Shown here piece after piece: positions 3,545 to 43,922 of a DNA stretch of 64,000 nt. Below the pieces are notes generated by a model that worked only from the letters and a program-made list of their open reading frames with translations, had not been told where the DNA came from and did no database searches. Within the stretch, counting starts at the first letter, position 1; each line of letters opens with the position of its first letter. Position numbers and translations under genes: made by a program. The stretch comes from an uncultured Eubacteriales bacterium (GTDB taxonomy: Bacteria > Bacillota_I > Bacilli_A > RFN20 > UBA1709): assembly GCA_964367815.1 (NCBI GenBank), contig CAYIYR010000002.1, forward strand, positions 13,903-77,902, read 5' to 3'.

Positions 3545-3624
3545 TTAGCGTTTACTTAAATTTTTCCTTGAATTAAGTTCATAGATTTGGTATAACTCAA
3601 TTGTGATTTTGGAGGTGCTGCATA

Positions 3625-12421: not shown

Positions 12422-12497
12422 CGGGGCGTAGCACAGTTGGTAGTGCGCTTGGTTCGGGACCAAGAGGTCGCGGGTTCGATTCCCACTGCTCCGACCA
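12422..12497 (+). tRNA. tRNA-Pro (anticodon CGG)
   Basis: 76-nt cloverleaf read by hand. Acceptor CGGGGCG/TGCTCCG, D-arm GCAC/GTGC, anticodon stem CTTGG/CCAAG with loop TTCGGGA, T-loop TTCGATT, and a 3' CCA. Confidence 0.8.
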
Positions 12498-15367: not shown

Positions 15368-16471
15368 ATGCCATTAACAGCTGGAATTATCGGGTTACCA
15401 AATGTTGGTAAATCGACTTTATTTAATGCGATAACATCATCGCATGTAATTGCGGAGAATTATCCGTTTGCGACCATTGAACCAAATACCGGAACGGTGG
15501 AAGTAGCTGATAAACGCTTAACCAAGTTGACTGAGATGTTTTCCTCAGCGAAAACAATTGCAGCAACTTTTGAATTTAGAGACATCGCTGGTCTCGTCAA
15601 GGGAGCCTCTAAGGGAGAGGGATTAGGAAATCAATTCTTATCACACATTAGGGAAACCGATGCTATCTGTCATGTTGTCAGATGCTTCGATGATGCGGAA
15701 GTCATCCATGTTGATGGTGATGTTAATCCTATTCGCGATGTGGAAACCATCAATATTGAATTAATTATGGCGGATTTAGATACTGTCGAAAAAAGAATTG
15801 CCCGCGTAGAGAATAAAGCCCGAGTTAACAAGGATCCTGATTCTGTTGCTGAATATAATGTTTTGAAGATTATTCAAGAAGTTTTACTCAAAGAGCAACC
15901 AGCGCGAAGCTTATCCTTTACTGATGCTCAATTAGCCATTGTAAAAGGATTTCATCTATTGACCTTAAAACCAATTATTTATATTGCAAATATCAGTGAA
16001 GAAGATTTAGCGGATCCCCAAAAGAATCACTATTATCAAGAATTAAAAATTGTTGCCGAGAAAGAGCATGCCCAGATAGTTGAAATTTGTGCCAAGATAG
16101 AAGAAGACCTTGTTTCCTTATCCGCCGAAGAGAAGAAAGAGTTCCTTCAGGATCTTGGGGTTGAGGAATCTGGTCTAGATAAAGTAGTTCATGCCGCCTA
16201 TTCTTTGTTGGGATTGAGAACTTTTTTCACAGCGGGACCAAAAGAATCTCGGGCTTGGACTTTCAAAGAAGGCATGAAAGCTCCTCAATGTGCGGGAATT
16301 ATTCATACAGATTTTGAAAAAGGCTTTATAAAAGCCGAGATATATAGTTATGATGATTTAATTAAATGTGGTAGCGAACAACTCGTAAAAGACAATGGGA
16401 AATTCCGTATTGAAGGAAAGGAATATATTGTAAAAGACGGGGACATAGTTCACTTCCGCTTCAATCTATAA
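15368..16471 (+). CDS. ychF: Ribosome-binding ATPase YchF (Obg-family)
   Basis: [17 protein letters not shown]-loop, a TGS-like C-terminus and a length of 367 aa. Confidence 0.93.
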
Positions 16472-16480
16472 TTCAAAAAA

Positions 16481-16506
16481 GGCGTTCAAACAGCGCCTTT
16501 TTTATT
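16481..16506 (+). terminator. Rho-independent terminator
   Basis: GGCGT-tcaaaca-GCGCC followed by TTTTTTATTTTT. Confidence 0.75.
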
Positions 16507-16553
16507 TTTGTCATAAAACTCAGTAGCGATATATATTGTATATATATCACTTC

Positions 16554-16582
16554 TTGCTTTATATTCTCTAATAGTATATAAT
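16554..16582 (+). promoter_or_regulatory. Sigma-A-type promoter of the ABC/giant-lipoprotein operon
   Basis: TTGCTT, a 17-nt spacer, then TATAAT. Confidence 0.55.
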
Positions 16583-16608
16583 GCCTTTATAAAAAAGAGG
16601 TTAATTTT

Positions 16609-18834
16609 GTGATATATATATTGCTCGGATTATCCGTTATCATCTCTGCGATAGTAATTTATTTATGTTTGTTTTGTAAAAAAATTCGTTTCCCTAAAAA
16701 GGTGAAACTTTCAATTGATGATGATAAAGATAACAAATTCTATGTTGTGATGCGTATCCTTTGTTGGATATTAATCGCAGCAGTCGCTGTTAGATTAGTG
16801 AATAACGATGTCATTGCTGCAATGGTAAAAAGAGACATCCTTTTTTCCACGTCTATGGCGACCATTGTTATAGTTATTCGCGCATTAACTATGGGTGCAG
16901 TTTTAGCTTGTGCGGTTGTCTCTTACTTTAATTATCGTAGCTTTCGGAATATCGTTGCGTTTTTTGTTCCGATTATCTACATTGTAAATATTCTATTTTT
17001 TACCCAAAATATCCAAGCGATGTTGGGAATTGTTAAGGTTCCAACGTATAATTATCGCGAGATTGTTTTTGCGATTGAATGCGTTTTAGGAGTAGTGATT
17101 GGGCTTTCTTTCTTGGTTAAGAAAATCAAAGATCGTGATTTCTCTAAGATGTATTTACAACTTCCAATCGCTCTATTTACCTTGATAGGCTTTTCCCTCG
17201 CCAATATGCATCCTTGCAGTATTGAGAATATGTGGGGAACTGATTGGTGTGGAGCCTCAACTAATTTCAATCGGATGCATATCTATATAATTATTGGAAT
17301 GCTGATTGTTACCGTCTTATTAATAGCCTTATTTAAGAAGTTGAAAAACGATGACATGACACACTGTTTCCTTTGCATCTGCTCGGTTTGTTGTGCCATG
17401 GTCTTTACTGCTAATCGCGACTATGCTAACTTTAAATTTTGGAATTTGCCCTTACATCTTTGTAATACGGGTGTCTTCTTGATGCTTTTTAGTTTTACTT
17501 GTCGTAATAAACCCATTTTCTATTTTAATTATTTAGTTAATGTGGTTGGAACTCTGTTTGCAATTATCTTGCCAGATTATGGGGCGGCCTTATTCTCAGA
17601 TCCAGGAATTCACTATTGGCATAACCACCTTTTGTTATTTATTCTACCATTGGTAGCGGTTGGTGCTGGCTATTATGAAAGACCGAAACTGAAGTATATT
17701 TATTATTCAATGGTTGTCTTTACAATCTATTTTCTTTTAGTTTGTTTTATTAATGCCTGGTTTAAGAATTTTGAACCAGGAGTAAACTACTTCTATTTAA
17801 ATGGCGATACTATTGTTAATCGATTTGTCTGGGCGCCGCATCTAAAAAATGATTTTATTTTTGTTTTCAAGATTCAGAATTGCACTTTCGAAATCTATTG
17901 GTTGTATTGGCTATTAACCTATGTCATTTATATTGGTTTTATTTTTGTCGCTTGGTTTGGCTTTGTCGCTTTATATAAGGTTAGTGATGGATATACAGAC
18001 TTGATTGTCCGCAATCACAAAATAGGTGAGGAACATAGTCATCTAATGCATGAGATGAAAGGGCGAAAACTTTCGGAGCCTCTGCATCCTGAGGACAAAG
18101 ATATGATAAAAATCAGCCATTTTACGAAGGTTTATAATGGTAGTAGCAATAAATCAGTTGATGATTTCTCTTTGCAGATACACGGTGGGGAAGTCTATGG
18201 TTTCCTCGGCCACAATGGTGCGGGAAAATCAACAACAATTAAATCTTTAGTGGGAATTCAAACAATTACTTCTGGAACCATGGAAGTATGTGGTTTTGAT
18301 GTTGAACGCCAACCTCTACAAGCGAAAAGAGTCATTGGCTATGTTTCAGATAATCATACTGTCTATGAAAACTTGACCGGCCGTGAGTATATCAATTATG
18401 TCGCTGATTTGTATTTGGTAGCACAAGCTGAAAGAGATGAGAGAATAACTAAATATGTGAAGATGTTCAACTTGGAAGATGCCATCGATCGAGAAATAAA
18501 GGGCTATTCCCATGGAATGAAGCAGAAAATTGTTGTCATAGCTTCATTGATTCATAATCCCAAAATTTGGATTCTTGATGAGCCACTTACCGGCTTAGAT
18601 CCTTCTAGTAGTTTCCAGATAAAATCAGTAATGAAAGAATATGCCAACAATGGCAACATTGTCTTTTTCAGCAGCCATGTTATCGAGGTTGTTGAGAAAA
18701 TCTGTGACAAGATCTGCATTATCAATCATGGTAAACTTGTGGGCGAATGGGCATTAAAAGATCTTTCGGCCCATGGGGAAACACTTCAAGATTTATATAT
18801 GAAGTATGTTTCGATAAATAAGGAGGATAACTAG
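16609..18834 (+). CDS. Fusion protein: N-terminal polytopic membrane domain (about 480 aa, LPLHLC motif, possibly YwaF/TMEM164-like) fused to a C-terminal ABC-2-type ATP-binding domain.
   Basis: GTG start after AAGAGG. At least 10 predicted TM segments. Walker A GHNGAGKST, signature variant YSHGMKQK, Walker B ILDEPLTGLDP. Confidence 0.7.
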   Translation: MIYILLGLSVIISAIVIYLCLFCKKIRFPKKVKLSIDDDKDNKFYVVMRILCWILIAAVAVRLVNNDVIAAMVKRDILFSTSMATIVIVIRALTMGAVLACAVVSYFNYRSFRNIVAFFVPIIYIVNILFFTQNIQAMLGIVKVPTYNYREIVFAIECVLGVVIGLSFLVKKIKDRDFSKMYLQLPIALFTLIGFSLANMHPCSIENMWGTDWCGASTNFNRMHIYIIIGMLIVTVLLIALFKKLKNDDMTHCFLCICSVCCAMVFTANRDYANFKFWNLPLHLCNTGVFLMLFSFTCRNKPIFYFNYLVNVVGTLFAIILPDYGAALFSDPGIHYWHNHLLLFILPLVAVGAGYYERPKLKYIYYSMVVFTIYFLLVCFINAWFKNFEPGVNYFYLNGDTIVNRFVWAPHLKNDFIFVFKIQNCTFEIYWLYWLLTYVIYIGFIFVAWFGFVALYKVSDGYTDLIVRNHKIGEEHSHLMHEMKGRKLSEPLHPEDKDMIKISHFTKVYNGSSNKSVDDFSLQIHGGEVYGFLGHNGAGKSTTIKSLVGIQTITSGTMEVCGFDVERQPLQAKRVIGYVSDNHTVYENLTGREYINYVADLYLVAQAERDERITKYVKMFNLEDAIDREIKGYSHGMKQKIVVIASLIHNPKIWILDEPLTGLDPSSSFQIKSVMKEYANNGNIVFFSSHVIEVVEKICDKICIINHGKLVGEWALKDLSAHGETLQDLYMKYVSINKEDN

Positions 18835-18835
18835 T

Positions 18836-20437
18836 ATGTTTGAAAGAATTAACACATTAGTCAAACTCCAGCTTGGTCATCGCTACCGGATCAAAAAGAG
18901 TGGCGATCAAATATGGAAATTAATCTTTAAAATTGCGGGTTTCTTCATCGTAGGAGCTGCCGCTTATTTAGTTATGTTTGCGATCAAGAAATTCGTTTAT
19001 CTAACAATTACGAATTCAATGATTCTTTTCATTATTTTCTTCACGCAGGTTTTAACTCTTTTAGCGAATGCCGCTTCCTTAACTAAATCTCTTTATGGTA
19101 GTAAAGATAATGCGATTCTTCTTTCTTTACCAGCTCATAATAGTGAAATCTATATTTCCAAATTAATCGTCTTTTATCTACTAGAACTCTATGGTAATGC
19201 GATGTTTCTCTTACCAATTCTAGCGGGTTATGGACTATTTTCTGGGCAGGGTTTATGGTATTATTTTGCTGCTGTTATTATTACCTTTTTATTACCAATA
19301 GTGTCCGTTCTTGCGGGAGCTTTACTATCCATACCGCTATCTTATGTTGCGAAATTGTTTAGAAAGTTTTCCATCTTATATGGTATATTTACATTAGGAA
19401 TTGTCGGCTTGGTCTTCTATTTTGTAACTAAACTAGTAGCTCTAATTCCTGTTCCGTTCCGCTTAGTTGCACTTTATAACTCATTGATGAACAAAATACT
19501 AGTGCTTGTTGAAACCGCTAATAGTTATGCTCTGTTCTACAAGTGGTTTTCTAATTTCCTTTTCAACATTCATGCGGGAATGAATATTGTCTTTATAATT
19601 CTATTAATTATCGGTTTAATTATTGCTAATATGTTATTGTCACAACCGTTATTCTTTAAGCTATCTAGTCATAGTGCGGAAGATGCAGTTCAAAAGAAGC
19701 ATAAAGGAATCAATAAAAAATCAAAGAGCACGTTCTTGGCCTTCTATAAAAAAGAGGTCATTATCTCCATTCGCTGTTTTGGCAAAGTATTAGAAAACTA
19801 TCTAATGATTATCTGCATGCCGATTATTCTCTATCTTATTAACAGTATATTTTTAGCACTGAATTTAAGCACGTTTGGTCAAACGCTTATTTTTGGAATT
19901 AATATTCTAATCGGACTAATGATGATGATTGCTAGCAACACCGCTAGTTCAATGTCACTGAGTGAAGAAGGCAGCGAGTTTGTGCTGCTGAAAACCTCAC
20001 CCGCAAATACGCAAAAAATAGCATGGGCTAAGATCGCTAACAACATTCTTATCTCCACGTTTTTACTGATTGTTTCTTTATTTATTCTAGCTTTTATGAA
20101 AGTGATGCCAATTAGATCGGTTGTAGTTTTAGGCATTATCTTCTTCTTGGTAAATTGCGGACATATTATGTGGTCCTTCCAATTGGATTTAAGGAATCCG
20201 CAGATTAAAGATGTGGCATTAACAGGAACAGTTAGTAATCAAGTTAATGTTACGAGTTGCTTGACAATCGGAACACTCATCTCTGTTGTTTTTGGTGCTT
20301 TAGCGGTCCTGCTTTCTTTTGGACTGGGCAGTGCGGCCTATTTACAAATGATAGATTTAGCAGTTTTATTTGTGGTTTGGAGATTCATTGTTTTCCGAAT
20401 CAACTTAAAAGTCTATTTCTATGATATAGAGTTATAG
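18836..20437 (+). CDS. Large polytopic membrane protein, the putative permease partner of the upstream ABC ATPase.
   Basis: Its ATG lies 2 nt after the upstream stop, indicating coupling. 533 aa with about 12 hydrophobic segments. Confidence 0.55.
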   Translation: MFERINTLVKLQLGHRYRIKKSGDQIWKLIFKIAGFFIVGAAAYLVMFAIKKFVYLTITNSMILFIIFFTQVLTLLANAASLTKSLYGSKDNAILLSLPAHNSEIYISKLIVFYLLELYGNAMFLLPILAGYGLFSGQGLWYYFAAVIITFLLPIVSVLAGALLSIPLSYVAKLFRKFSILYGIFTLGIVGLVFYFVTKLVALIPVPFRLVALYNSLMNKILVLVETANSYALFYKWFSNFLFNIHAGMNIVFIILLIIGLIIANMLLSQPLFFKLSSHSAEDAVQKKHKGINKKSKSTFLAFYKKEVIISIRCFGKVLENYLMIICMPIILYLINSIFLALNLSTFGQTLIFGINILIGLMMMIASNTASSMSLSEEGSEFVLLKTSPANTQKIAWAKIANNILISTFLLIVSLFILAFMKVMPIRSVVVLGIIFFLVNCGHIMWSFQLDLRNPQIKDVALTGTVSNQVNVTSCLTIGTLISVVFGALAVLLSFGLGSAAYLQMIDLAVLFVVWRFIVFRINLKVYFYDIEL

Positions 20438-20448
20438 GAGGAGAAGGT

Positions 20449-20931
20449 ATGAATAGAAAAACTATTATCTTATTAATTATTGCCTTCTCAATCATCTTTG
20501 TAGCGTTGGTTGGCTTCTATGGGGTGAAACCCTTCAATGATAATCCAGTTCAAGCGACTTATATTAAGTGGCAGAATGAAGAATTATCCATTGATGACAA
20601 CGGCAAGGTTTATTATTATTTACCCTGTGTCGAAGAGAATGAAACAAAGAGAGTTTATTTAGCAAACTTTGTAGTTTTGGACTCAGCAGCAACGCTGGGA
20701 AAAGAAACTTTGAAGTATTCGATTATCTACGATAAAGAGGAAGAAAAAGGTCGCTTAGAATTAACCGAAACCGGAACTTTTGCGGGTTGGTTAACCATCA
20801 AAGGTCAAACTACGGCGACAATTACTGTGTCCACTACAGATGGTAGTGGCATCGATGCCCGTTTATTTATTCGAAACAAGACAGCTTGTGTGATTCCGGG
20901 TGAAGTAATCGGTGGCGATATATTTAAATAG
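20449..20931 (+). CDS. Small membrane-anchored extracytoplasmic protein (N-terminal TM anchor plus a beta-rich domain).
   Basis: SD AGGAGGAG. N-terminal LLIIAFSIIFVALVGF, followed by about 130 hydrophilic residues. Confidence 0.5.
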   Translation: MNRKTIILLIIAFSIIFVALVGFYGVKPFNDNPVQATYIKWQNEELSIDDNGKVYYYLPCVEENETKRVYLANFVVLDSAATLGKETLKYSIIYDKEEEKGRLELTETGTFAGWLTIKGQTTATITVSTTDGSGIDARLFIRNKTACVIPGEVIGGDIFK

Positions 20932-20990
20932 TTTATAAAACTGTTAATTCAGTTTTGTAATATAAGCAGACAAAAAGAAGGAGGTTTAAT

Positions 20991-23900
20991 ATGAAAAAAC
21001 CATTTAAGAAAATAGCGTTTTTTCTGAGCATTTTGTTTCTATGCTTAGGGGTAGGCACATTAACATCATGTAATGAACAAGCAGCTGTCAAAGTTAAGTT
21101 CTATGACTCTTTGACGACTACCGAAACAACAGAAAAATTGTTATTTCCTGGATCTTATGATCTAGCGAAACTGGCTTCTGAAGGTCTTGATGACTTTGTT
21201 CCAGAAAAGAAGGGATATACCTTCGTAAAATGGACACTTGATAAAAGTGGGACAAGCGACTTTGATCCCAAAAAATATACAAGTGGAACAGAAACCGTCG
21301 TGAATGTCTATGCCCAATGGGAGGAGAGAGCAAAGATTGCTTACTATAACGGTAGCAATCCCATTGGAACCTATTATTTTGATGAACTAAAGACTGGCAC
21401 CCAAACAGTTGCGGCGCCCACAAGGACTGGATACACCTTTGTGAGATGGACAACTGATTCGGCCAATACAACAGAATTTGTTGCTTCAACCTTTAGTTAT
21501 CCAACTGATAAGAAAACCGTTAATGTCTACGCTCAATGGGAGAAAGTAGTTACCATTATTTATATGAATGGCAACACCGAAGCAGGAAGAGTATTATTAT
21601 CAGCTCTAAAAGAGGGTACTTCTACTGCACCAACAGTTACAAAAGTTGGTTTCAATTTTGATAAGTGGACAACTGATACTGAAGGGACAACCACATTTAA
21701 TCCCGCAACTTTAGTTACTGATAAAGATACAATAACTGTTTATGCGAAATTTAATGCGAAAGCCAAAGTGACTTATTATGATGCCTCGGTAGTTCTTTAT
21801 GATTATTATCTTGAAGACATCACCACATCGACTCCCCAACCAACCCCAACAAAAGTCGGCTATACATTTGTCGGCTGGGTCGATGGCAATAATGCCGCTT
21901 TTACAGTCAATTTAAGTGCAACTGCTAACCAAGTAGCTTATGCAAAGTGGGAGCAGAGAGCTCTAGTTAATTTCTATAATGGTTCAACAAAAGTTGAAAC
22001 CAAGTATTTAGATGAACTTAAAGCCGGAACAACCACACAACCAGTTGTTACCAAAACGGGTTATTCCTTCCTCGAATGGAATCTATCCGAGAATGGTGCG
22101 GGCGTAACCTTTAATCCAAATACTTATAATGGAAGTTCCAAAACTATTAATGTTTATGCTCAGTGGGAAAGAGTAGTAACTGTTATCTATATGAATGGTT
22201 CTACCGAAGTCGGAAGAGTTCTGCTATCTGCCTTAAAAGATGGCACATTACCAGCACCAACCGCTACCAAGGCTCACTATACGTTCAAGAACTGGACAAC
22301 TGATAGTGCGGGAACAACGCCATTTGTGGTAGCTAATTGCCCAATGACAAACGCCACATTCACTGTCTATGCTCAATGGACTGAGAATGTCAAAGTCATC
22401 TATATGAGCGATAATTCCATCTATCAAACTTATTATTTAGATGAATTATCAGCTGGATTTACTAATCCTGTCATTAATAAAACTGGATATACCTTTGTCA
22501 AATGGGAAAACAGTGAGAATGAAGAATTTGTTTTAAATCGTGAAGCGACTGTTAACCAGATTGCTTACGCCAAATGGGAACAAAGAGCGGTTGTTAAATA
22601 TTATGATGGCAACACTCTTGTTGAAACGAAGTATCTCGATGAATTGAAAGCGGGAACAACCACTCAACCATCAGTCACGAAGACTGGTTATACCTTTGTT
22701 GAATGGAATACTTCATCCGATGGAGAAGGAAATACCTTTAATTATGTGGCCTATGCCGGAACAGAAAAGACCATCAATGTTTATGCTAAATGGGATTTAA
22801 TTGTTACAGTTGTCTATATGAATGGTGCAAGTGAAGTCAATAGAATTCTTCTCTCAGCTTTGAGAAGCGGAACTTCTGAACCAGTAGTTACTAAGACCGG
22901 TTATTACTTCAGTGCTTGGACAACTGATCTTGAAGGTAACACTCCATTCGTTTATGGAAGTTATTTTGCTAGTACTGCCACAGTTACTGTCTATGCTCAA
23001 TGGACAGAAAAATTAGTTGTTACTTACTACAATGGTAATGATGTTTATGATACCAAATATCTAGAGGATATTACCAATTCTTATGTTCCAGCCGAGCCTA
23101 CTAAAACGGGTTATGACTTCCAAGGATGGGTTACCACTGATGATGGTTCAACAAGTTTTGTTCTTGACGTCGCTGCTTCAAGCAACATTAATGCTTACGC
23201 CAAATGGGAACAAAAAGTAACTGTTAGATATTATGATGGCGAAACCCTAGTTGCTTCTAGATATTTAGATGAACTAAAAGCAGATATTACTTCTGCTCCA
23301 GCTGCTCCATCTAAGACTGGTTATACCTTTATAAGATGGACTGTCAATGGCGAAACATTCAATTATGATACATATGTCAGTGCTGTAAAGACAGTTAATG
23401 TTAATACTGAATATGAGTTAATTGTTACAGTAATCTATATGAATGGTTCAAGTGAAACAGGTAGAGTTCTATTATCAGCTTTGAAAGCTGGGACTTCAAC
23501 TGCTCCAACTGCGACCAAACAACATTATACCTTCCAAGGATGGAAGACTGATGTTCTAGGGACAATTCCATTTGTCGTTTCTAACTGTCCAATGGACAAT
23601 GAAACAGTTACTGTTTATGCAAGTTGGACAGAAAATTCCAAGGTAACATACTATGTAGGCAATGAATTGTACGATAGTAAATATCTAGATGAAATTGCCA
23701 ATAGTTATGTTCCAACAACACCAACTGCTTCTGGTAAGTTCTTCAATACTTGGGTAACTACCGCTGAAGGTAGCACCGCCTTTGTTTTGGACTGTGCTTC
23801 TACAACAGACTTAGTTGCTTATGCAACTTGGTACAATGAGCCAGAAATTACTGGACTTAACTACGATGCTGCTAATGGCCGAATTGAATGGAATGCTTTG

Positions 23901-26522
23901 ATCGATGCGACTTATCAGATTAAGATTGATGCTGGTGAACCAGTTTCAACTGTTACAGTCGAAGGTGGAAAAGTTCATTACTCCTTAGATTCAAGTTTGG
24001 ACATTGGACAGCATACCGCGTATGTAATGATCACTTATCACGGACATAGCACAGTTTGGACAAGTTTATCATTCACAAAGCAGATTGTTTTATCAATTGG
24101 TACACCAAGTTTTAATGCGGAAACTCGTGTAATATCTTGGGATGAGCCTGCTGGTGATGGTTATTATTATGATGTTTATTGGAATGGCATTGTTGGTGTT
24201 ACTCCAGTAAGAGTCAATACTAATAGTTATACTATTCCAGCAAGCATCGTTACTGGTTCTTATGTTATCTATGTAAAGGCTTATAAAGAAGTCAATTCTG
24301 TTATTATTAGTTCTAATACTGATAGTGCTTCAGTAACAGTAGTTTCAGTTGAAAGATACGATGAAACATTAAAATTATTTATTAATGCCGATGATAGATA
24401 TGTTCTCATGACCGGTGTCGATTACACATTTGCTACAGTATCTTCCATTACTGAAAACACCGAATATTTCACTGTTACAGGTAACAAAATCACGATTAAG
24501 AACAATCTTGCCAATGGTACAATATTTGATGTAGTAACTAACTTGGGAACCATTCATGCTTGTGCAGAAAATGTTATCTTGAGCATATCACCAGATGATA
24601 ATTGGACCACTTATCAAAACAACGCGAAATTAAGCAATGTTAATAGTAATTCAAATCAAACTGGTTTTATGAATATTACTAATTTATATGAAGTTGGTAC
24701 AGGAGATGACAATTATCGCTTAGAGTTGAATATCACTAGTAGTAGTGCATTCGCCGCAACTTGTTTCCCTCTAGATGTTAGCGGAACAGTTGGTTTAAGC
24801 AGTAATATTGGTTACTATTTATCACTGAAGAAGGTTGGAGAATACTACTGCATTGATTGGACAGAGCATGCTTCTGAATTAGCAGATGGAACGGTTGTTT
24901 CATTAACTATTAAGGCACATTATGTAACTGGTGCACAGAAGGAAATACCTTTCTATACTTACACATTTAAAGTAAACAAAGGTGTTAACGTTTATACTGA
25001 TGCTGAATTAAGAGAAAATTTCAGTGATTTAGATGTTAAGTCAATTAATCTTCATAGCAATATTATCTTGAGTCAAGCCGAGTTAACAGAGCTAGGAATA
25101 GTCTACAGTAATCATACTGATACCACTGTAGAGAATCCGAAAAACAGTATTGAAAATAGTATTTATTTCCGTTCTTCCGCTGTGGATGATGATTTCAGAC
25201 TTAATGGAAACTATTTCCAAATTGATGCTTCAAACGTTAATAAACTAATTGGTAAAGCTAATTCTACTTTTGGCACCTACAAGATGTATTATGTGTTTGT
25301 TGCTGTCTTAGGAATTCAAGGTGGCGGAAGTGATTCAGTCAATTATGAAGAATTAGGTGGCGCCGTAACTGTGAGTAAAAAGCAGAATGCCTCTATAACA
25401 AATATTAAAGTAAAAGGTAATGCAACGCTTACTACAACTGAGGGTTCATTCTTAACCGATTCAGGGGCAATTGATGGCTTTATTAGCCAAACCTATGCAA
25501 CAACCTTAGATAACGTTGTAATCTACAATTGTAATGAAGGAATCAAGCTCGAATCACAAAATAATGGGACTCACTTTATCAGAAACAATCTACATATTGT
25601 AAAGAATACTGCAATTAGCCAATGTTGGAATAGTAGTACTTACTTATTTACAGATGGCGAAATCAGATTTGAAGATAGCCATTTCTATAAGTCATATAGC
25701 ACATCTTCAACTCTAGCTATGTCAGAGTCTAGCAATAGAAATATTGTTTTCACTGATGTTGATAATGGCATTTATGCAAGAGCATATCCATGCATCACAT
25801 TAGATAATATGATTTTTGATAACTGGGCATATGGTGATGAATTCTACTATCAAGCTGTCGGGTTTAGCTCATCATTAACAAGTTATAAGCAACAAATGGA
25901 TACCAATGTTAAAGCACTGACACAAGATGGCTATACCTTAGTCCGTACTAATCAAGATTCAACAACTCAAATCAATATGGAACTTATGATTAATGGTAAG
26001 AATGATAGTATGTACGAAATAAGATATGTCAAAGCTGATGGAACAGTTTATAGTTCATTGAGATCTTGTAAGCAAGTTGGCGATATAGACTGTCCAAATG
26101 ATCCTAGAGCCGGAGCTGACCCATATACTGTTTTATGGCCAGTAGGATCAACAAGTAGTTCAGAAAACTTTGGTGCATTAGCGACACAACTTACTAATGA
26201 ACTCACCGCTTTAGGTGCTCAATTATCAGGCAATTCTGAATATGCTACCGCTTATACTAATATGGAAGGTAAATTCTTGCTGGATTCCGTGTTTGGTGAT
26301 AATTTGATGACTTATGCACTAACTTTATTAGGACAAACTGGTGATGAAACAGCAACAAGTAACTTACGTACATCTACTCTTTACCAATACGCATTTGCTC
26401 AAGCATACAATGATGCTAACAGTGGCAGAATCCACATGGAAGCAACCTTGCCAAATGCCGGTCTTGGAAATGGTAATGATGGTATTTCAACAATACTTGT
26501 TGAAGCCATTAAAGCATCTTAA
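20991..26522 (+). CDS. Giant cell-surface lipoprotein of 1843 aa. It has 13 tandem Listeria-Bacteroides (Flg_new)-type repeats, two FN3-like modules and a C-terminal beta-helix-like region.
   Basis: Signal peptide with the lipobox LTSC. Repeats of about 72-88 aa end in the pattern KTGYTF..W......F.........V(Y)A.WE. The segment NIKVKGNATL...VVIYNCNEGIKL...IRNNLHIVKNTAIS is reminiscent of parallel beta-helix repeats. Confidence 0.8.
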   Translation: MKKPFKKIAFFLSILFLCLGVGTLTSCNEQAAVKVKFYDSLTTTETTEKLLFPGSYDLAKLASEGLDDFVPEKKGYTFVKWTLDKSGTSDFDPKKYTSGTETVVNVYAQWEERAKIAYYNGSNPIGTYYFDELKTGTQTVAAPTRTGYTFVRWTTDSANTTEFVASTFSYPTDKKTVNVYAQWEKVVTIIYMNGNTEAGRVLLSALKEGTSTAPTVTKVGFNFDKWTTDTEGTTTFNPATLVTDKDTITVYAKFNAKAKVTYYDASVVLYDYYLEDITTSTPQPTPTKVGYTFVGWVDGNNAAFTVNLSATANQVAYAKWEQRALVNFYNGSTKVETKYLDELKAGTTTQPVVTKTGYSFLEWNLSENGAGVTFNPNTYNGSSKTINVYAQWERVVTVIYMNGSTEVGRVLLSALKDGTLPAPTATKAHYTFKNWTTDSAGTTPFVVANCPMTNATFTVYAQWTENVKVIYMSDNSIYQTYYLDELSAGFTNPVINKTGYTFVKWENSENEEFVLNREATVNQIAYAKWEQRAVVKYYDGNTLVETKYLDELKAGTTTQPSVTKTGYTFVEWNTSSDGEGNTFNYVAYAGTEKTINVYAKWDLIVTVVYMNGASEVNRILLSALRSGTSEPVVTKTGYYFSAWTTDLEGNTPFVYGSYFASTATVTVYAQWTEKLVVTYYNGNDVYDTKYLEDITNSYVPAEPTKTGYDFQGWVTTDDGSTSFVLDVAASSNINAYAKWEQKVTVRYYDGETLVASRYLDELKADITSAPAAPSKTGYTFIRWTVNGETFNYDTYVSAVKTVNVNTEYELIVTVIYMNGSSETGRVLLSALKAGTSTAPTATKQHYTFQGWKTDVLGTIPFVVSNCPMDNETVTVYASWTENSKVTYYVGNELYDSKYLDEIANSYVPTTPTASGKFFNTWVTTAEGSTAFVLDCASTTDLVAYATWYNEPEITGLNYDAANGRIEWNALIDATYQIKIDAGEPVSTVTVEGGKVHYSLDSSLDIGQHTAYVMITYHGHSTVWTSLSFTKQIVLSIGTPSFNAETRVISWDEPAGDGYYYDVYWNGIVGVTPVRVNTNSYTIPASIVTGSYVIYVKAYKEVNSVIISSNTDSASVTVVSVERYDETLKLFINADDRYVLMTGVDYTFATVSSITENTEYFTVTGNKITIKNNLANGTIFDVVTNLGTIHACAENVILSISPDDNWTTYQNNAKLSNVNSNSNQTGFMNITNLYEVGTGDDNYRLELNITSSSAFAATCFPLDVSGTVGLSSNIGYYLSLKKVGEYYCIDWTEHASELADGTVVSLTIKAHYVTGAQKEIPFYTYTFKVNKGVNVYTDAELRENFSDLDVKSINLHSNIILSQAELTELGIVYSNHTDTTVENPKNSIENSIYFRSSAVDDDFRLNGNYFQIDASNVNKLIGKANSTFGTYKMYYVFVAVLGIQGGGSDSVNYEELGGAVTVSKKQNASITNIKVKGNATLTTTEGSFLTDSGAIDGFISQTYATTLDNVVIYNCNEGIKLESQNNGTHFIRNNLHIVKNTAISQCWNSSTYLFTDGEIRFEDSHFYKSYSTSSTLAMSESSNRNIVFTDVDNGIYARAYPCITLDNMIFDNWAYGDEFYYQAVGFSSSLTSYKQQMDTNVKALTQDGYTLVRTNQDSTTQINMELMINGKNDSMYEIRYVKADGTVYSSLRSCKQVGDIDCPNDPRAGADPYTVLWPVGSTSSSENFGALATQLTNELTALGAQLSGNSEYATAYTNMEGKFLLDSVFGDNLMTYALTLLGQTGDETATSNLRTSTLYQYAFAQAYNDANSGRIHMEATLPNAGLGNGNDGISTILVEAIKAS
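21072..23850 (+). repeat. Coding tandem repeat array: 13 Flg_new-like units with a higher-order 3-4-unit periodicity.
   Basis: Units R5 and R8 are near-identical at the protein level (AKWEQRA.V..Y.G.T.VETKYLDELKAGTTTQP.VTKTGY.F.EWN) but only about 75% identical at the DNA level. Confidence 0.8.
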
Positions 26523-26546
26523 GATTAGAAATTCTATTTAAAAAGG

Positions 26547-26578
26547 GGTACTGTTAATAACAGTGCCTCTTTTCTTTG
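26547..26578 (+). terminator. Rho-independent terminator of the operon
   Basis: GGTACTGTT-aat-AACAGTGCC followed by TCTTTTCTTT. Confidence 0.7.
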
Positions 26579-26617
26579 TAATTGTGTTATATTATTAGTG
26601 TTGTTGGAGGTGTTAAT

Positions 26618-26998
26618 ATGTCGTTATTAAGGAATGTCGATTGCGTATCATTTTTCTGTGATGATCTAGATGATGGAATCAAGTTTTATACAACTCTCGG
26701 ATTTAAGTCATTATGGCGAACAAAGAATTCCTGTGGTTTAGGAATGGATAGTGATATTACAGAAGTAGTATTGGTTAATGAACACAATCCAATAGTAGAT
26801 TTCAAAGTTGACAATGTTATTGATGCCATTGATGAGTATGTTAAAGCCGGTGGAAAAGTAAAATATGGTCCATTTTATATTGATATTGGCAAATGCGTGG
26901 TTGTTGAGGATAAATGGGGTAACACTTATTGCTTGCTCGATATGACCAAAGGTTTATACCAAGTTGATAAGGATGGAAAAGTCATTGGAGTTAAGTAA
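26618..26998 (+). CDS. VOC (glyoxalase/bleomycin-resistance) family protein
   Basis: About 127 aa from the ATG preceded by GGAGGTG. Fold-typical pattern. Confidence 0.55.
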   Translation: MSLLRNVDCVSFFCDDLDDGIKFYTTLGFKSLWRTKNSCGLGMDSDITEVVLVNEHNPIVDFKVDNVIDAIDEYVKAGGKVKYGPFYIDIGKCVVVEDKWGNTYCLLDMTKGLYQVDKDGKVIGVK

Positions 26999-27054: not shown

Positions 27055-28011
27055 GTGGATGTAGTGAAAAGAAAAGTTGGATTAGTATTAGGTGGTGGCG
27101 GAGCAAAAGGTGCCTATCAGATTGGTGTCTATAAAGCGCTACGTGAATATAAGCAGATAGAACAAATCGTGGCTTTCTCTGGAACGTCAATAGGGGCTCT
27201 TAATTTGGTTTTGTTATCTTCTAAGGAAATTGATAAGGCTGAGCGAATTTGGTTAAATTTGAGCCGAAAAAACATCTTAACGTTGAAAAACTGGAAAGAA
27301 TATTTATCTTTCAAGAATTTTAGTGTTCTCTCAAGAAGGGGAATGTTAGAAATCTTTAGTAGTGATATAGATTTTGATAAAGTCTCTAAATGTGAATATC
27401 CATTATATGTTGGCGCGACAAATACAATTGAAGACTGTGGAGAGATATTTAAGTTGAATGGAATGGAATCTAATAAGATTATTGATTGTCTTTCAGCTTC
27501 AAGTGCAATCCCAAAGATATTCGCACAAGTATTTATTAATGGCAAAAAGTATTGTGATGGCTTTCGTTATTTAAATGTTCCCATTCAATGCCTCATTGAA
27601 GAGAAGTGTAACTTCCTATTCACCATTCCCTTAAGTCCTTATCTAGCACCTAAAGATGGTGATTTCCCAGACACCACGATTATCGACTTTAATGAGAAGA
27701 TTTTCGCTAATCTCAAAACTTGGGAAGGGACACTTGGTTTTGATGCCAAGATAGTTGAGGAGAGAATGAATCTTGGTTATAAGAATGCCATGAAATTATT
27801 GGAATTCTTAAGAAAAGAAGGAGTCATTACTGTCACCTTCAAGGATAAAGTCCGTTATTTCTTCGGCAAGATCACTGGTCGGAACAAGAAATTCAAAAAG
27901 TACTATTCTATGGAAGACGTGAATATAATTAAGGAACTACCAAAACCTAATGATGAGGTAGAACAAACCATAGAAGAGGGATCGACCACAGATGGGACAA
28001 AGACTAGTTGA
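27055..28011 (+). CDS. Patatin-like phospholipase
   Basis: GGGGAKG oxyanion motif and GTSIG nucleophile elbow. GTG start. Confidence 0.8.
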   Translation: MDVVKRKVGLVLGGGGAKGAYQIGVYKALREYKQIEQIVAFSGTSIGALNLVLLSSKEIDKAERIWLNLSRKNILTLKNWKEYLSFKNFSVLSRRGMLEIFSSDIDFDKVSKCEYPLYVGATNTIEDCGEIFKLNGMESNKIIDCLSASSAIPKIFAQVFINGKKYCDGFRYLNVPIQCLIEEKCNFLFTIPLSPYLAPKDGDFPDTTIIDFNEKIFANLKTWEGTLGFDAKIVEERMNLGYKNAMKLLEFLRKEGVITVTFKDKVRYFFGKITGRNKKFKKYYSMEDVNIIKELPKPNDEVEQTIEEGSTTDGTKTS

Positions 28012-28810
28012 GTTATTGAAGTATCTTTTGTTAGGCTTTGTGCAGGGCGCTTGTGAGATATTACCTATCTCATCAAGTGGGCATTTAATAATTTTCCAAT
28101 ATATTATGGGGAGGGAAGAAGTAAATCTTGCCTTCTCTGTTTTTTTGCATTTTGGTAGTTTGATAGCGGTATCCATTTTTCTACGCAAGCGAATAGTTGA
28201 ATTGTTAAGTGGAACGTATAAATATCTTATAAAGAAAGATCGGAATTATTATAATCAGGCTCATTATTGCTTGCTACTTGTTTTATCAACAATTGTTACT
28301 GGAATAATTGGTCTAGTATTTGAGGATAAAGTTCAACAGATAAGTACATTAGGCTTTGTGGGATGCGCACTAATTATTAATGGAATATGTTTGTTAATTG
28401 TTAATCGTATAAGTAACAAAGCAACTAAAACTATCAACAATATGCCTTGGTGGAAAGCCGTATTGATTGGACTGGGTCAAGGGGTCGGAATACTTCCTGG
28501 TATTTCTCGTAGTGGAGCGACACTTGGAACATCAATTGCGGTTGGAGTCAAAAAAGAAGTCGCTGCTGAGTATGCATTTCTTCTTTTTATTCCCGTAGAA
28601 TTTGGAGCATTAATCATCAGCATTGATGATTTAATGACAACTGAAAAGTCTCTGATTATCCCATATATTTTAGGAATGGTAATCGCCGCAATTACTACAT
28701 ACTTTGCGCTCGTTTTATTTTTGGGAGTAATTAAAAAGAAGAAGATTAATTACTTCTCCTTTTACTCGTTAATTGTTGGTGTTATTTGCACTCTGGTTTA
28801 TTTTTTTTAA
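27992..28810 (+). CDS. uppP: Undecaprenyl-diphosphatase
   Basis: EILPISSSGHL and GISRSGAT motifs typical of BacA/UppP. Confidence 0.9.
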   Translation: MGQRLVELLKYLLLGFVQGACEILPISSSGHLIIFQYIMGREEVNLAFSVFLHFGSLIAVSIFLRKRIVELLSGTYKYLIKKDRNYYNQAHYCLLLVLSTIVTGIIGLVFEDKVQQISTLGFVGCALIINGICLLIVNRISNKATKTINNMPWWKAVLIGLGQGVGILPGISRSGATLGTSIAVGVKKEVAAEYAFLLFIPVEFGALIISIDDLMTTEKSLIIPYILGMVIAAITTYFALVLFLGVIKKKKINYFSFYSLIVGVICTLVYFF

Positions 28811-29532: not shown

Positions 29533-30192
29533 ATGGTTACTAATGGTTGGAAAGAGATTATCGACAATGAAATCAAGCAAGATTATTTTCACGATTTGAG
29601 TGCCTTTGTTAAGAATGAATATGCCACCAAAACAATTTATCCGAAAGGAAAGAATATTTTTAAGGCCTTTGAATTAACAGACTTTTCTGATGTTCGTGTA
29701 GTAATCATTGGTCAAGATCCTTATCATAATCCAAACCAAGCCCAAGGTTTATGTTTTTCCGTTCCTGCTGATGAAGAAATACCGCCTAGTTTAGTCAATA
29801 TTTTCAAGGAGTTACACGATGATATAGGAATTGATATTCCCAAGAGTGGCAATTTGGAAAAATGGGCTAGCAATGGTGTATTATTATTAAATGCTATTTT
29901 AACGGTTCAAGCTCATCGTCCCTTGTCTCATAGTGGGAAGGGCTGGGAAATATTTTCGGAAAATATTATCAAAAAGCTCAATGAGGATGATAGTCCGAAA
30001 GTTTTTATGCTTTGGGGTAATTATGCGAAAACAAAAGCACCCCTTATTACCAATCCTAAGCATTTGGTTTTAATGGCTAATCACCCATCACCTTTATCTG
30101 CCTACCGAGGGTTCTTTGGCTGTCATCACTTCTCCCAAGCCAATAATTATTTGGTTGAGAATGGTCGTAAACCTATCGACTGGTCAATATAA
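29533..30192 (+). CDS. ung: Uracil-DNA glycosylase
   Basis: The motifs GQDPYH, LLLN and HPSPLSA. Confidence 0.92.
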   Translation: MVTNGWKEIIDNEIKQDYFHDLSAFVKNEYATKTIYPKGKNIFKAFELTDFSDVRVVIIGQDPYHNPNQAQGLCFSVPADEEIPPSLVNIFKELHDDIGIDIPKSGNLEKWASNGVLLLNAILTVQAHRPLSHSGKGWEIFSENIIKKLNEDDSPKVFMLWGNYAKTKAPLITNPKHLVLMANHPSPLSAYRGFFGCHHFSQANNYLVENGRKPIDWSI

Positions 30193-43752: not shown

Positions 43753-43828
43753 TGGTGGGAGCTGAGGGGATCGAACCCACGACCTTCTGTACGTCAAACA
43801 GATGCTCTCCCAACTGAGCTAAACTCCC
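43753..43828 (-). tRNA. tRNA-Val (anticodon GAC)
   Basis: The reverse complement folds as acceptor GGGAGTT/AGCTCCC, D-arm GCTC/GAGC, anticodon stem TCTGT/ACAGA with loop TTGACGT, and a 3' CCA. Confidence 0.8.
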
Positions 43829-43846
43829 ACGTGTTGAGAAAAATAA

Positions 43847-43922
43847 TGGTGCCGGCTACCGGAGTTGAACCAGTGACCCACTGATTACGATTCAGTAGCT
43901 CTACCAACTGAGCTAAGCCGGC
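43847..43922 (-). tRNA. tRNA-Thr (anticodon CGU)
   Basis: The reverse complement folds as acceptor GCCGGCT/AGCCGGC, anticodon stem ACTGA/TCAGT with loop ATCGTAA, T-arm ACTGG/CCGGT and a 3' CCA. Confidence 0.85.

Follow-up and report, generated by a model that had tools for sequence, protein, structure and literature searches.

The closest architectural analogue of the locus described here is NosDFY(L), an ABC-2 complex that matures nitrous oxide reductase. It combines an ABC-2/type V permease (NosY, a 6-TM homodimer) and a DrrA-like ATPase with a membrane-held extracytoplasmic right-handed beta-helix partner and an associated lipoprotein. The type V transporter Rv1217c-Rv1218c of Mycobacterium tuberculosis is an exporter of drugs and lipids, in which a chain of ~530-550 residues carries both transmembrane domains and the ATPase is a homodimer. 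It has neither extracytoplasmic partners nor an enzyme domain. Type V exporters were described as having a common lipophilic character (PMC11406275). BceAB, FtsEX and LolCDE, which belong to type VII mechanotransmission, are also ABC ATPases with extracytoplasmic partners or lipoproteins.

The ATGY superfamily (TMEM164/YwaF/YpjA (LhaT)/AIG1/GPC1) consists of 6-TM lipid acyltransferases and hydrolases. Its defining features are a nucleophile on TM2 together with an invariant His on TM4, and the proteins act on the acyl groups of lipids, by transfer or by hydrolysis (bioRxiv 10.1101/2022.07.06.498872). Extracellular acetylation of lipoproteins is carried out by the bacterial member LhaT; the lipid carrier that it uses has to cross the membrane, and the enzyme shows that ATGY proteins can work at the outer face (PMC12345273). 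The described ATGY members are all stand-alone proteins. A lipid-modifying enzyme and a translocator are combined on one polypeptide in MprF, a lysyl-phosphatidylglycerol synthase fused to a flippase that serves envelope remodelling; the enzyme part of MprF lies in the cytoplasm, and its flippase is not powered by ATP.

The window under study, a stretch of 64,000 nucleotides from an uncultured Eubacteriales bacterium (contig CAYIYR010000002.1), was found to contain a four-gene cell-envelope unit that is real and conserved, and that, with the g1 fusion, has so far not been described. The open reading frame list gave four co-directional genes on the + strand, spanning positions 16609-26522: g1 (16609-18834, 741 aa, GTG start), g2 (18836-20437, 533 aa), g3 (20449-20931, 160 aa) and g4 (20991-26522, 1843 aa). 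The gaps between them were 1, 11 and 59 nt, and all four starts were preceded by a GAGG/GGAGG Shine-Dalgarno sequence. The unit was flanked upstream by ychF (15368-16471; TIGR00092, 501 bits) and downstream by a gene for a Glyoxalase/VOC protein (26582-26998). Terminator-like hairpins on the + strand marked both boundaries, one after ychF (16475-16503, a 12-bp stem followed by a T-run) and the other after g4 (26541-26573, a 15-bp stem followed by a T-run), and a terminator scan found no + strand site of this type in the intergenic gaps of the unit. These results agreed with the first-pass annotation of the DNA, which had described four tightly spaced co-directional genes bracketed by a promoter and a terminator and flanked by ychF and a VOC-family gene. 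Three short + strand terminator-like hairpins of 5 pairs each were also present inside the unit, at 18642-18655 (in g1), 20588-20603 and 21950-21964, all in coding sequence.

Two promoter candidates were recorded on the + strand, both as sequence matches only. The scan preferred TTGTCA-18-TATATT at 16508-16537, and the other candidate (16554-16582) consisted of TTGCTT (16554-16559), a 17-nt spacer and TATAAT (16577-16582). The latter had been called a strong promoter in the first-pass annotation. Its hexamers were present, but the word "strong" was overstated, since the -35 element TTGCTT matched the consensus at 3 of 6 positions. Promoter-like matches were not enriched in the region (42 found against 45.5 expected from shuffles). 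The GC content of the unit (0.34-0.39) was the same as that of the flanks, thus the composition gave no sign of a recent insertion, and no mobility genes, integrase or repeats were found at the locus. Hence, a mobile element or island was rejected on the lack of an integrase, repeats or a GC shift. The idea of an accessory insertion was weakly supported: the location of the unit varied between genomes and its distribution was patchy, whereas a compositional anomaly and mobility genes were missing. A defence system was likewise rejected, because PADLOC returned generic ATPase matches only.

The g1 product had ~13 TM helices, which contained a domain of the TMEM164/YwaF (ATGY) acyltransferase family, and behind them an intact ATPase of the ABC-2 type. 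The fusion of a membrane domain to an ABC ATPase, as first annotated, was borne out by Pfam: PF14808 (TMEM164) matched residues 221-404 with 67.1 bits at a cut-off of 25, and PF00005 (ABC_tran) matched residues 518-660 with 92.6 bits. Unlike the stand-alone ATGY members, the g1 domain had about six extra N-terminal helices in addition to the ATPase, and unlike g1, NosF has no fused membrane acyltransferase domain. The likeness of g1 to MprF was in concept only, the folds being unrelated. The match to TIGR02206 ("TMEM164-related integral membrane acyltransferase") had an E-value of 2.5e-15 and 56.4 bits and missed the curated cut-off of 75 bits. Only TMEM164 and TIGR02206 were matched; no YpjA-family (DUF1405) match was obtained, which placed g1 outside the YpjA/DUF1405 branch of LhaT. 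A PDB sequence search with the g1 N-domain gave no meaningful match. Judged by these profile scores, the domain is a divergent branch of the TMEM164/YwaF family. At least 42 clusters of fused g1 homologues were listed, with E-values of 3.5e-117 or better.

The TMEM164/YwaF-family core of g1 (residues 221-404) was encoded at 17269-17820 on the + strand, with the codons of H224 at 17278-17280, of P281-L-H283-L-C285 at 17449-17463 and of H340 at 17626-17628. H224, P281, H283, C285, N311 and H340 showed no variation across 32 fusions and the complete set of 13 module loci. Cys285 (in PLHLCN) and His340 (in W.NH) were ~55 residues apart on separate helices, an arrangement that resembles the published ATGY dyad (bioRxiv 10.1101/2022.07.06.498872). 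A standalone YwaF-like protein of one of the loci (L085) had the same PL..C and His motifs, aligned at the same HMM positions as in g1, and also fell below the TIGR02206 cut-off (65.7 bits). No similarity between this protein and the g1 N-domain was detected by BLAST, and their kinship was visible only via the common HMM and the motifs. From the motif and spacing in comparison with this one standalone paralogue, we infer that C285/H340 probably correspond to the published dyad. The gene of the standalone protein was an extra one located directly upstream of the L085 module. The topology was derived from hydropathy, the positive-inside rule and the cytoplasmic ATPase, which left five K/R-rich loops inside and H224, C285 and H340 at the outer helix ends. 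By this crude hydropathy analysis, the His/Cys/His residues are predicted to face outward.

The ATPase domain (residues 499-741, 18103-18834 on the + strand) contained the full set of motifs of a PF00005 ATPase: a Walker A GHNGAGKS, a signature YSHGMKQK, a Walker B D657-E658 and an H-loop H690. Its residues K540, S634, D657, E658 and H690 were invariant in the same 32 fusions and 13 loci, and so were the GHNGAGKS and YSHGMKQK motifs, so that every catalytic residue was kept. Among the NCBIfam models the nearest were the DrrA subfamily and GldA, neither of which reached its cut-off, and DrrA, GldA and NodI were the nearest ABC-2 families. A Wzt-type carbohydrate-binding extension was absent from the domain. 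The YSHGM of the signature and the YSKGN of Rv1217c-Rv1218c are both non-canonical (PMC11406275).

The g2 product was a tandem (2 x 6 TM) 12-TM permease of the type V / ABC-2 fold. Its AF2 model (pLDDT 79) consisted of two 6-helix halves with an amphipathic helix ahead of each. Foldseek matched the model with a probability of 0.99 to Rv1217c (8k1p), NosY (7o0z) and CcmB (8ce1), at weak E-values (0.1-2) and TM-scores of 0.4-0.58, and weaker matches were obtained to Wzm and ABCG2. Rv1217c was the best full-length match, but with ~10% identity and a TM-score of 0.4. Pfam PF16949 (ABC_tran_2) was matched by five of nine g2 family members, with a best E-value of 5.8e-14, and was not matched by the g2 of the window. 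A PDB sequence search with the g2 profile gave no meaningful match. According to the structural model, g2 can be assigned to the type V (ABC-2) permeases, and g1 and g2 form a type V transporter with one tandem 12-TM permease, in contrast to NosY with its two 6-TM subunits. By analogy with Rv1217c-1218c, the ATPase would be present as two copies per transporter. Neither an FtsX match nor an FtsX/MacB-type domain with a large extracellular domain was found in g2, and no two-component system was adjacent to the module in the listed loci with called genes. The locus therefore differs from BceAB, FtsEX and LolCDE, and the Bce-like sensing or resistance module suggested by the first-pass annotation did not hold.

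The g3 product had one N-terminal TM anchor and one putative Big_2-like Ig domain outside the membrane. An alignment of nine members showed a Big_2-like P.NAT...G.V.F...S.DGS pattern; the g3 of locus L087 matched Pfam Big_2 (PF02368) at 1.8e-11, and the g3 of the window had no significant Pfam match. The g4 product began with a signal peptide (20991-21071, + strand) with a lipobox L24-T25-S26-C27, read from sequence, and the lipobox Cys was present in 12 of 12 separate g4 homologues. The protein is thus predicted to be a bacterial lipoprotein (SPase II substrate). No conserved motif followed the lipobox Cys of the homologues. Both the small anchored protein and the giant lipoprotein of the first-pass annotation were confirmed by these features.

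Behind the signal peptide, g4 had a stalk (21093-23840, + strand) of 13 repeats of ~70 aa of the Listeria-Bacteroides (Flg_new) type, matched by Pfam PF09479 with 199 bits in 10 stretches and with a motif spacing of 66-73 aa. The repeats were present at the protein level only, as Tandem Repeats Finder detected no DNA-level repeat in g4. The conserved core (residues 1100-1843, 24288-26519, + strand) consisted of a pair of Ig-like domains, a right-handed beta-helix (approximately residues 1331-1669, 24981-25997, + strand) and a helical C-terminal region. The core was assigned to the pectin-lyase-like right-handed (parallel) beta-helix fold, with 6-19% sequence identity to all structural matches. 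Considered against the family-specific catalytic residues of CAZy lyases, hydrolases and epimerases, its invariant positions were only an Asn/Gly ladder, E518 and N563, and D605 was kept in at least 90% of the sequences (core numbering). A PDB sequence search with the g4 profile gave no meaningful match. Word-indexed protein searches with the core, as a single sequence or as an 8-sequence profile, returned no relatives; however, a full HMMER scan found 23, hence the blank result came from the prefilter and does not mean that relatives are lacking. Compared with NosDFY(L), the beta-helix protein was itself the lipoprotein here, g4 failed to match the NosD family and there was no nosZ in the locus, which was not classified as NosDFY(L). 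Both g3 and g4 diverged very fast, which suggests that they face the environment or a host.

All four genes were found together in 13 loci with unrelated flanking genes. The hosts were Acholeplasmataceae, Izimaplasma, "Bacilli" and Christensenellales-like MAGs. The module thus occurs in Gram-positive as well as wall-less groups, from communities of the gut and of anaerobic digesters. One locus had a different gene order, and in another (L087) g3 and g4 were fused into one protein. The beta-helix partner of L087 had a TM-helix anchor and no lipobox Cys, while its g1 kept the full dyad. A scan of species representatives by ABC motif patterns found at least four fused loci. Look-ups that started from a g4 homologue recovered the module in four of the four informative cases, and among 89 loci searched, the g3 and g4 HMMs matched only those with a fused ATPase. 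The pairwise identity matrices of the four proteins were correlated (r 0.54-0.93); all four proteins are inherited together and co-diverge. The view of a self-contained unit in the first-pass annotation is supported by these results.

The closest unfused ATPase among the matches listed (49% identity) was that of locus L009, where the next genes encoded a g2-like permease and a pair of TM-Big_2-beta-helix proteins. More distant unfused relatives adjoined ORFs that resembled ECF sigma/anti-sigma genes by their N-terminal sequences. No glycosyltransferase, polymerase, sugar-nucleotide or lipid-synthesis gene was conserved beside the module in the 13 loci. Searches of Pfam, NCBIfam, PADLOC, PDB sequences and the literature matched no named or characterised system and gave domain-level matches only, in line with the first-pass annotation, and the literature search found nothing on a TMEM164/YwaF-ABC ATPase fusion.

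We proposed that the four gene products would act as one membrane machine. Cys285 and His340 would be the acyl-transfer dyad of the family and would lie on the outer-leaflet side of the membrane. Powered by ATP, the transporter would flip or extract a membrane lipid, a glycolipid or a lipid-linked glycan, as the acyl donor or acceptor, and on the outer side the fused domain of g1 would transfer an acyl group or take one off. Together, g3 and g4 would dock on the permease, as NosD does on NosFY, and either handle the glycan part or receive the product, so that the giant g4 protein would be a partner of the transporter and not its cargo. This docking is drawn by analogy only, since NosD was absent from the best structural matches of g4. 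Physical partnership is supported by the single g3-g4 protein of L087 and by the ABC pair with beta-helix partners in L009. The model as a whole, namely lipid or glycolipid translocation, outer-face acyl remodelling and participation of g3/g4, is tentative, and its chance was put somewhat below even. Because the L009 relative works without an ATGY domain, acyl transfer may be accessory rather than the core of the activity. The lack of a conserved glycosyltransferase or lipid-synthesis gene beside the module, the g1 score under the TIGR02206 cut-off and the weak E-values of the g2 fold matches also speak against the model. Possible, though rather doubtful, is the more specific proposal of an ATP-coupled extracytoplasmic acylation machine, the first of its kind, in which an ABC flippase joined to an outward ATGY acyltransferase would let lipid translocation directly feed the acylation of a surface glycoconjugate or lipid handled by the beta-helix partner.

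Several other readings were weighed against this model. Mechanotransmission alone, as in NosDFY, FtsEX or CcmAB, in which nothing crosses the membrane and ATP hydrolysis switches g3/g4 via g2, was judged unlikely. The beta-helix protein would then be an adhesin or a glycan enzyme, and the TMEM164-like domain a scaffold or lipid sensor. The fold matches of g2 to NosY and CcmB, both from non-canonical ABC machines, agree with such a switch, as does NosD, a right-handed beta-helix attached to NosFY (PMC8457098; PMC13452462). The L009 locus without an ATGY domain and the g3-g4 fusion point the same way. However, an ATGY His/Cys/His set invariant in 13 loci and 32 fusions is hard to square with a passive scaffold, and beyond the general fold g4 is not NosD-like. 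If the ABC-2 part instead exported a lipid-linked polysaccharide (Wzm/Wzt, TarGH), which the ATGY domain O-acylates and the beta-helix protein epimerises or trims, the module would be comparable to alginate maturation (AlgI/J/F/X with AlgG and AlgL). Such an export is consistent with the appearance of Wzm in the fold search with g2 and with an ATPase nearest to the ABC-2 families DrrA, GldA and NodI, but the missing Wzt-type extension and the lack of a conserved glycosyltransferase, polymerase or sugar-nucleotide gene beside the module make it rather improbable.

Tailoring of the lipid anchor of g4 was considered quite improbable. Here the ATGY domain would N-acylate, transacylate or de-acylate the diacylglyceryl-Cys in a LhaT- or Lit-like manner, and the ABC part would supply the acyl donor or extract the anchor. 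The lipobox in 12 of 12 separate homologues is in line with this, as is the extracellular modification of lipoprotein N-termini by LhaT, an ATGY enzyme (PMC12345273). On the other hand, the partner in L087 is TM-anchored without a lipobox Cys although its g1 retains the dyad, the L009 partners are likewise TM-anchored, and no motif is kept after the lipobox Cys. It is very unlikely that the transporter is a pump of the Rv1217c-1218c kind, for efflux of or resistance to hydrophobic compounds, or a Bce-like sensor, and that a surface gene adjoins it by chance. Over its full length, the g2 model is indeed best matched by a rifampicin-resistance transporter, Rv1217c (PMC11406275), YSHGM resembles the YSKGN of Rv1218c, and the distant unfused relatives lie beside ECF sigma/anti-sigma-like ORFs. 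Such a pump would leave the strict co-inheritance of g3/g4 with g1/g2 and the g3-g4 fusion unexplained, and neither a conserved nearby two-component system nor an FtsX-type permease was found. Secretion of the giant g4 protein by the transporter, for which only gene adjacency speaks, is extremely improbable, because g4 and its separate homologues bear their own Sec/lipoprotein signal peptides. Type V transporters are not known to export proteins of this size. Of the roles first suggested for the locus, export of the surface protein thus fails, while its anchoring or processing at the surface was the right general area.

The lipid translocation and acyl remodelling model bears on a widespread group of proteins, since bacterial YwaF/TMEM164-type proteins are common and no assigned function was found for them. 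For LhaT, the only bacterial protein of the superfamily that has been characterised, the route of the lipid-borne acyl donor across the membrane was left open. Here, an ATGY domain is naturally fused to an ABC ATPase, and the fusion gene shares a conserved operon with the genes of a type V permease and of surface partners. This arrangement points to translocation being directly linked with acylation at the outer face, and the module is a compact four-gene system in which such a link can be tested. Besides NosDFY, it is also a second case in which an ABC-2 transporter has an extracytoplasmic beta-helix partner. If the module is an ATP-coupled acylation machine, it would place the bacterial YwaF/TMEM164 family in a functional context for the first time and offer a new explanation of how molecules beyond the membrane are acylated.

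Four co-directional open reading frames were found on the + strand of the window: g1 (16609-18834, 741 aa), g2 (18836-20437, 533 aa), g3 (20449-20931, 160 aa) and g4 (20991-26522, 1843 aa). The intergenic gaps were 1, 11 and 59 nt and a good Shine-Dalgarno sequence preceded every start, so the tight linkage described in the first-pass annotation was confirmed, as were its flanking genes, ychF on the 5' side (TIGR00092, 501 bits) and a Glyoxalase/VOC protein on the 3' side (family search). Terminator-like hairpins lay on the 5' (16475-16503) and 3' (26541-26573) sides of the unit. A hairpin scan revealed no + strand terminator-like site in the intergenic gaps, and three short 5-pair hairpins were located inside the coding sequence (18642-18655, 20588-20603 and 21950-21964). 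One strong promoter and one terminator had been claimed; the terminator agreed with the 3' hairpin and the promoter sequence was present (TTGCTT-17-TATAAT, 16554-16582), but the word "strong" was not justified, as the -35 element agreed at only 3/6 positions. A second candidate (TTGTCA-18-TATATT, 16508-16537) scored better. Promoter-like matches were not enriched relative to shuffles, so the promoter is a sequence match only. The GC content of the unit resembled that of its own flanks, and neither an integrase nor flanking repeats were seen in the window.

Several neighboring genes were also recorded. A patatin-like phospholipase gene (27055-28011) was located just 3' of the VOC gene and was overlapped by a UppP/BacA undecaprenyl-diphosphatase gene (27992-28810); both of these have a link to lipids, and neither adjoined the module in the loci with called genes listed. 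A uracil-DNA glycosylase family gene was found a few kb 3' of the module, in the window (29533-30192) as well as in locus L087 (18023-18688), probably by coincidence. A 922-aa hybrid histidine kinase (PAS-HisKA-HATPase-receiver, 7492-10260) was encoded 6 kb upstream, with transporter genes, a tRNA-Pro gene and ychF in between, and was not conserved with the module. The tRNA-Pro(CGG), tRNA-Val(GAC) and tRNA-Thr(CGT) genes at 12422-12497 and 43753-43922 did not adjoin the module.

The four genes were found to co-occur and co-vary, as expected of the self-contained module proposed earlier. Fused g1 homologues formed 42 clusters among the matches listed from a 5.8-billion-cluster protein collection, all originating from metagenomes or MAGs. 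Eight neighborhoods with unrelated flanking genes shared a common order of fusion, permease, small protein of ~140-180 aa and large lipoprotein; in L008 the g4 homologue was placed upstream instead, and in L087 g3 and g4 were a single 1052-aa protein with a TM anchor. An HMMER scan with the g4 core (residues 1100-1843) retrieved only 23 representatives among 1.84 billion. Look-ups from g4 homologues led to the complete module in 4/4 informative cases, a fifth contig being cut at the gene, and across the 89 loci searched the g3 and g4 HMMs matched only in fused-ATPase loci. Mean pairwise identities were 39% (g1), 29% (g2), 23% (g3) and 20% (g4), and the identity matrices correlated (r 0.54-0.93); thus, the proteins diverge together, the exposed parts fastest. 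It was strongly concluded that g1-g4 are one unit.

The carriers included at least Acholeplasmataceae, Candidatus Izimaplasma, "Bacilli/Tenericutes" and Borkfalkiaceae/Christensenellaceae-like MAGs. Peptidoglycan is an unlikely target, since the first two are wall-less lineages and several other module loci contained Mur, FtsW and spore-coat genes. The module directly adjoined ftsZ in two distantly related genomes (L001:8668-9822 and L089:16712-17932) and lay close to Mur ligase, Ddl, MinCD or EzrA genes in L088 and L004; these placements may be the relic of an ancestral site next to the cell-wall and division cluster, or chance.

The membrane-domain::ABC-ATPase fusion was recovered in g1 by Pfam as TMEM164 (PF14808, residues 221-404, 67 bits) and ABC_tran (residues 518-660). 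The N-domain alone matched TIGR02206 ("TMEM164-related integral membrane acyltransferase") with an E-value of 2.5e-15 at 56 bits, below the curated cut-off of 75 bits; it is a divergent, uniquely fused branch of the Pfam TMEM164 family. The ATPase was nearest to the ABC-2-type families DrrA, GldA and NodI, each below its own cut-off. When 32 fusion proteins were aligned, H224, P281, H283, L284, C285, N311, W337, H340 and all ATPase catalytic residues were invariant. Across the 13 module loci, H224, P281, H283, C285, N311 and H340 and the ATPase residues K540, S634, D657, E658 and H690 were invariant (13/13), and W337 was not fixed (W, V, Y or F). The defining feature of the TMEM164/YwaF/YpjA/AIG1/GPC1 (ATGY) superfamily is a 6-TM core in which TM2 bears a Cys/Ser/Thr nucleophile and TM4 an invariant His; its members transfer or hydrolyze lipid acyl groups (bioRxiv 10.1101/2022.07.06.498872). 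In L085, the closest relative (g1 59% identical), a standalone 252-aa TMEM164/YwaF-family gene (3589-4347, TIGR02206 65.7 bits) was located directly 5' of the fusion gene, giving that module two ATGY-type domains. Because its product shares the same HMM positions and the LTH, PL..C and His motifs, C285/H340 is most likely the family dyad. Hydropathy indicated ~13 helices; with the ATPase cytoplasmic, the K/R-rich loops of g1 fall inside and H224, C285 and H340 at outer helix ends, an outward placement suggested by this crude method.

No Pfam match was obtained for g2 of the window itself, and 5/9 family members matched PF16949 (ABC_tran_2; best E 5.8e-14); a homologue cluster was annotated by JGI as an ABC-2 permease. 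The AlphaFold2 model of g2 (pLDDT 79) matched the tandem-TMD type V exporter Rv1217c (8k1p), NosY of NosDFY and CcmB with a probability of 0.99 each and TM-scores of 0.4-0.58, Wzm and ABCG2 being among the weaker matches. Rv1217c-1218c, the closest transporter fold, carries both TMDs on one ~548-residue chain, with an ATPase homodimer and a non-canonical signature motif, and type V transporters are said to have lipophilic character in common (PMC11406275).

The small anchored protein and giant lipoprotein were likewise borne out. The g3 protein had a single N-terminal TM helix and an ectodomain with a Big_2-like pattern in the family alignment; its L087 counterpart matched Pfam Big_2 at 1.8e-11. 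A lipoprotein signal (L-T-S-C27) opened g4 and was followed by 13 Listeria-Bacteroides repeats of ~70 aa each and a conserved core of ~740 aa. The core model from 21 sequences (pLDDT 68, pTM 0.72) contained two Ig-like domains, a right-handed beta-helix and a helical tail, and two family members matched PF20585 ("pectate lyase-like adhesive domain"). An Acholeplasmataceae MAG (L005:14034-21935) encoded a g4 counterpart of >2600 aa running beyond the locus, with lipobox LAAC and many such repeats. Further giant ORFs were near the module in L092 (18440-19990; >2000 aa, Flg_new and LRR domains), which also had an MMPL transporter gene nearby, and, cut, in L091 (1-2285; 2276 aa) and L094 (1-1169; 1310 aa).

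The closest unfused ATPase among the matches listed (275 aa, sharing 49% identity with the ATPase domain of g1) was encoded in an uncultured Clostridiales MAG (L009:10049-18073), followed by a g2-like 567-aa permease and two ~900-aa proteins, both of which combined a TM anchor with Big_2 domains and a g4-type beta-helix motif. This locus lacked an ATGY domain and resembles a form of the system without one; therefore, the pairing of an ABC transporter with a beta-helix protein is probably the older core, to which acyl transfer would have been added. More distant pairs of an unfused ATPase and a g2-like permease in Terrilactibacillus (L026:12309-13161) and Ruminiclostridium (L029:8954-9800) adjoined putative ECF sigma/anti-sigma ORF pairs, judged by N-terminal sequences only.

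NosDFY(L) was the closest system in architecture; membership was rejected, as neither a match to the NosD family nor a nos context was present. The permease type and the absence of any conserved two-component system excluded Bce, FtsEX and Lol-type systems, and the Bce-like role suggested earlier was dropped with them. The earlier impression that no named system matched held, as literature searches covering YwaF, bacterial TMEM164, PF16949 and ABC fusions yielded no account of the arrangement.

It was firmly concluded that the module comprises a type V ABC transporter, an ATPase bearing a predicted outward acyltransferase-family domain with an invariant dyad, and an Ig-like anchor and beta-helix surface protein alongside. 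Support is good for the identities of the components and for their linkage; substrate and chemistry are inferences. It was tentatively proposed, at somewhat under even chances, that a membrane lipid, glycolipid or lipid-linked glycan would reach the outer leaflet by ATP-driven flipping or extraction and be acyl-remodeled there by the fused g1 domain, and that the g3/g4 pair, docked as NosD docks on NosFY (PMC8457098; PMC13452462), might bind or process the glycan part. This model is limited by L009, with its ATGY-less locus, and by L087, with its dyad beside a partner that is not lipid-anchored. Pure mechanotransmission was considered unlikely, and glycopolymer export with O-acylation rather less likely. 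Tailoring of the lipoprotein anchor was rated slightly lower again: in L087 the dyad is retained although the beta-helix partner has no lipid anchor, which argues against the anchor of g4 as an obligate substrate. Efflux or resistance appeared improbable. Secretion of g4 by the transporter, the export role raised in the first-pass annotation, was judged very improbable, because every separate g4 homologue bears its own lipoprotein signal.

For the favored delivery and acyl-remodeling model, the LhaT pathway offers a parallel, since there an ATGY superfamily enzyme can act extracellularly on a lipid-borne donor whose route across the membrane is unsettled (PMC12345273); an ABC ATPase fusion would solve exactly this type of problem. 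It was concluded that g1-g4 constitute a real, conserved, uncharacterized four-component envelope system, whose parts are of known kinds and whose combination is previously undescribed.
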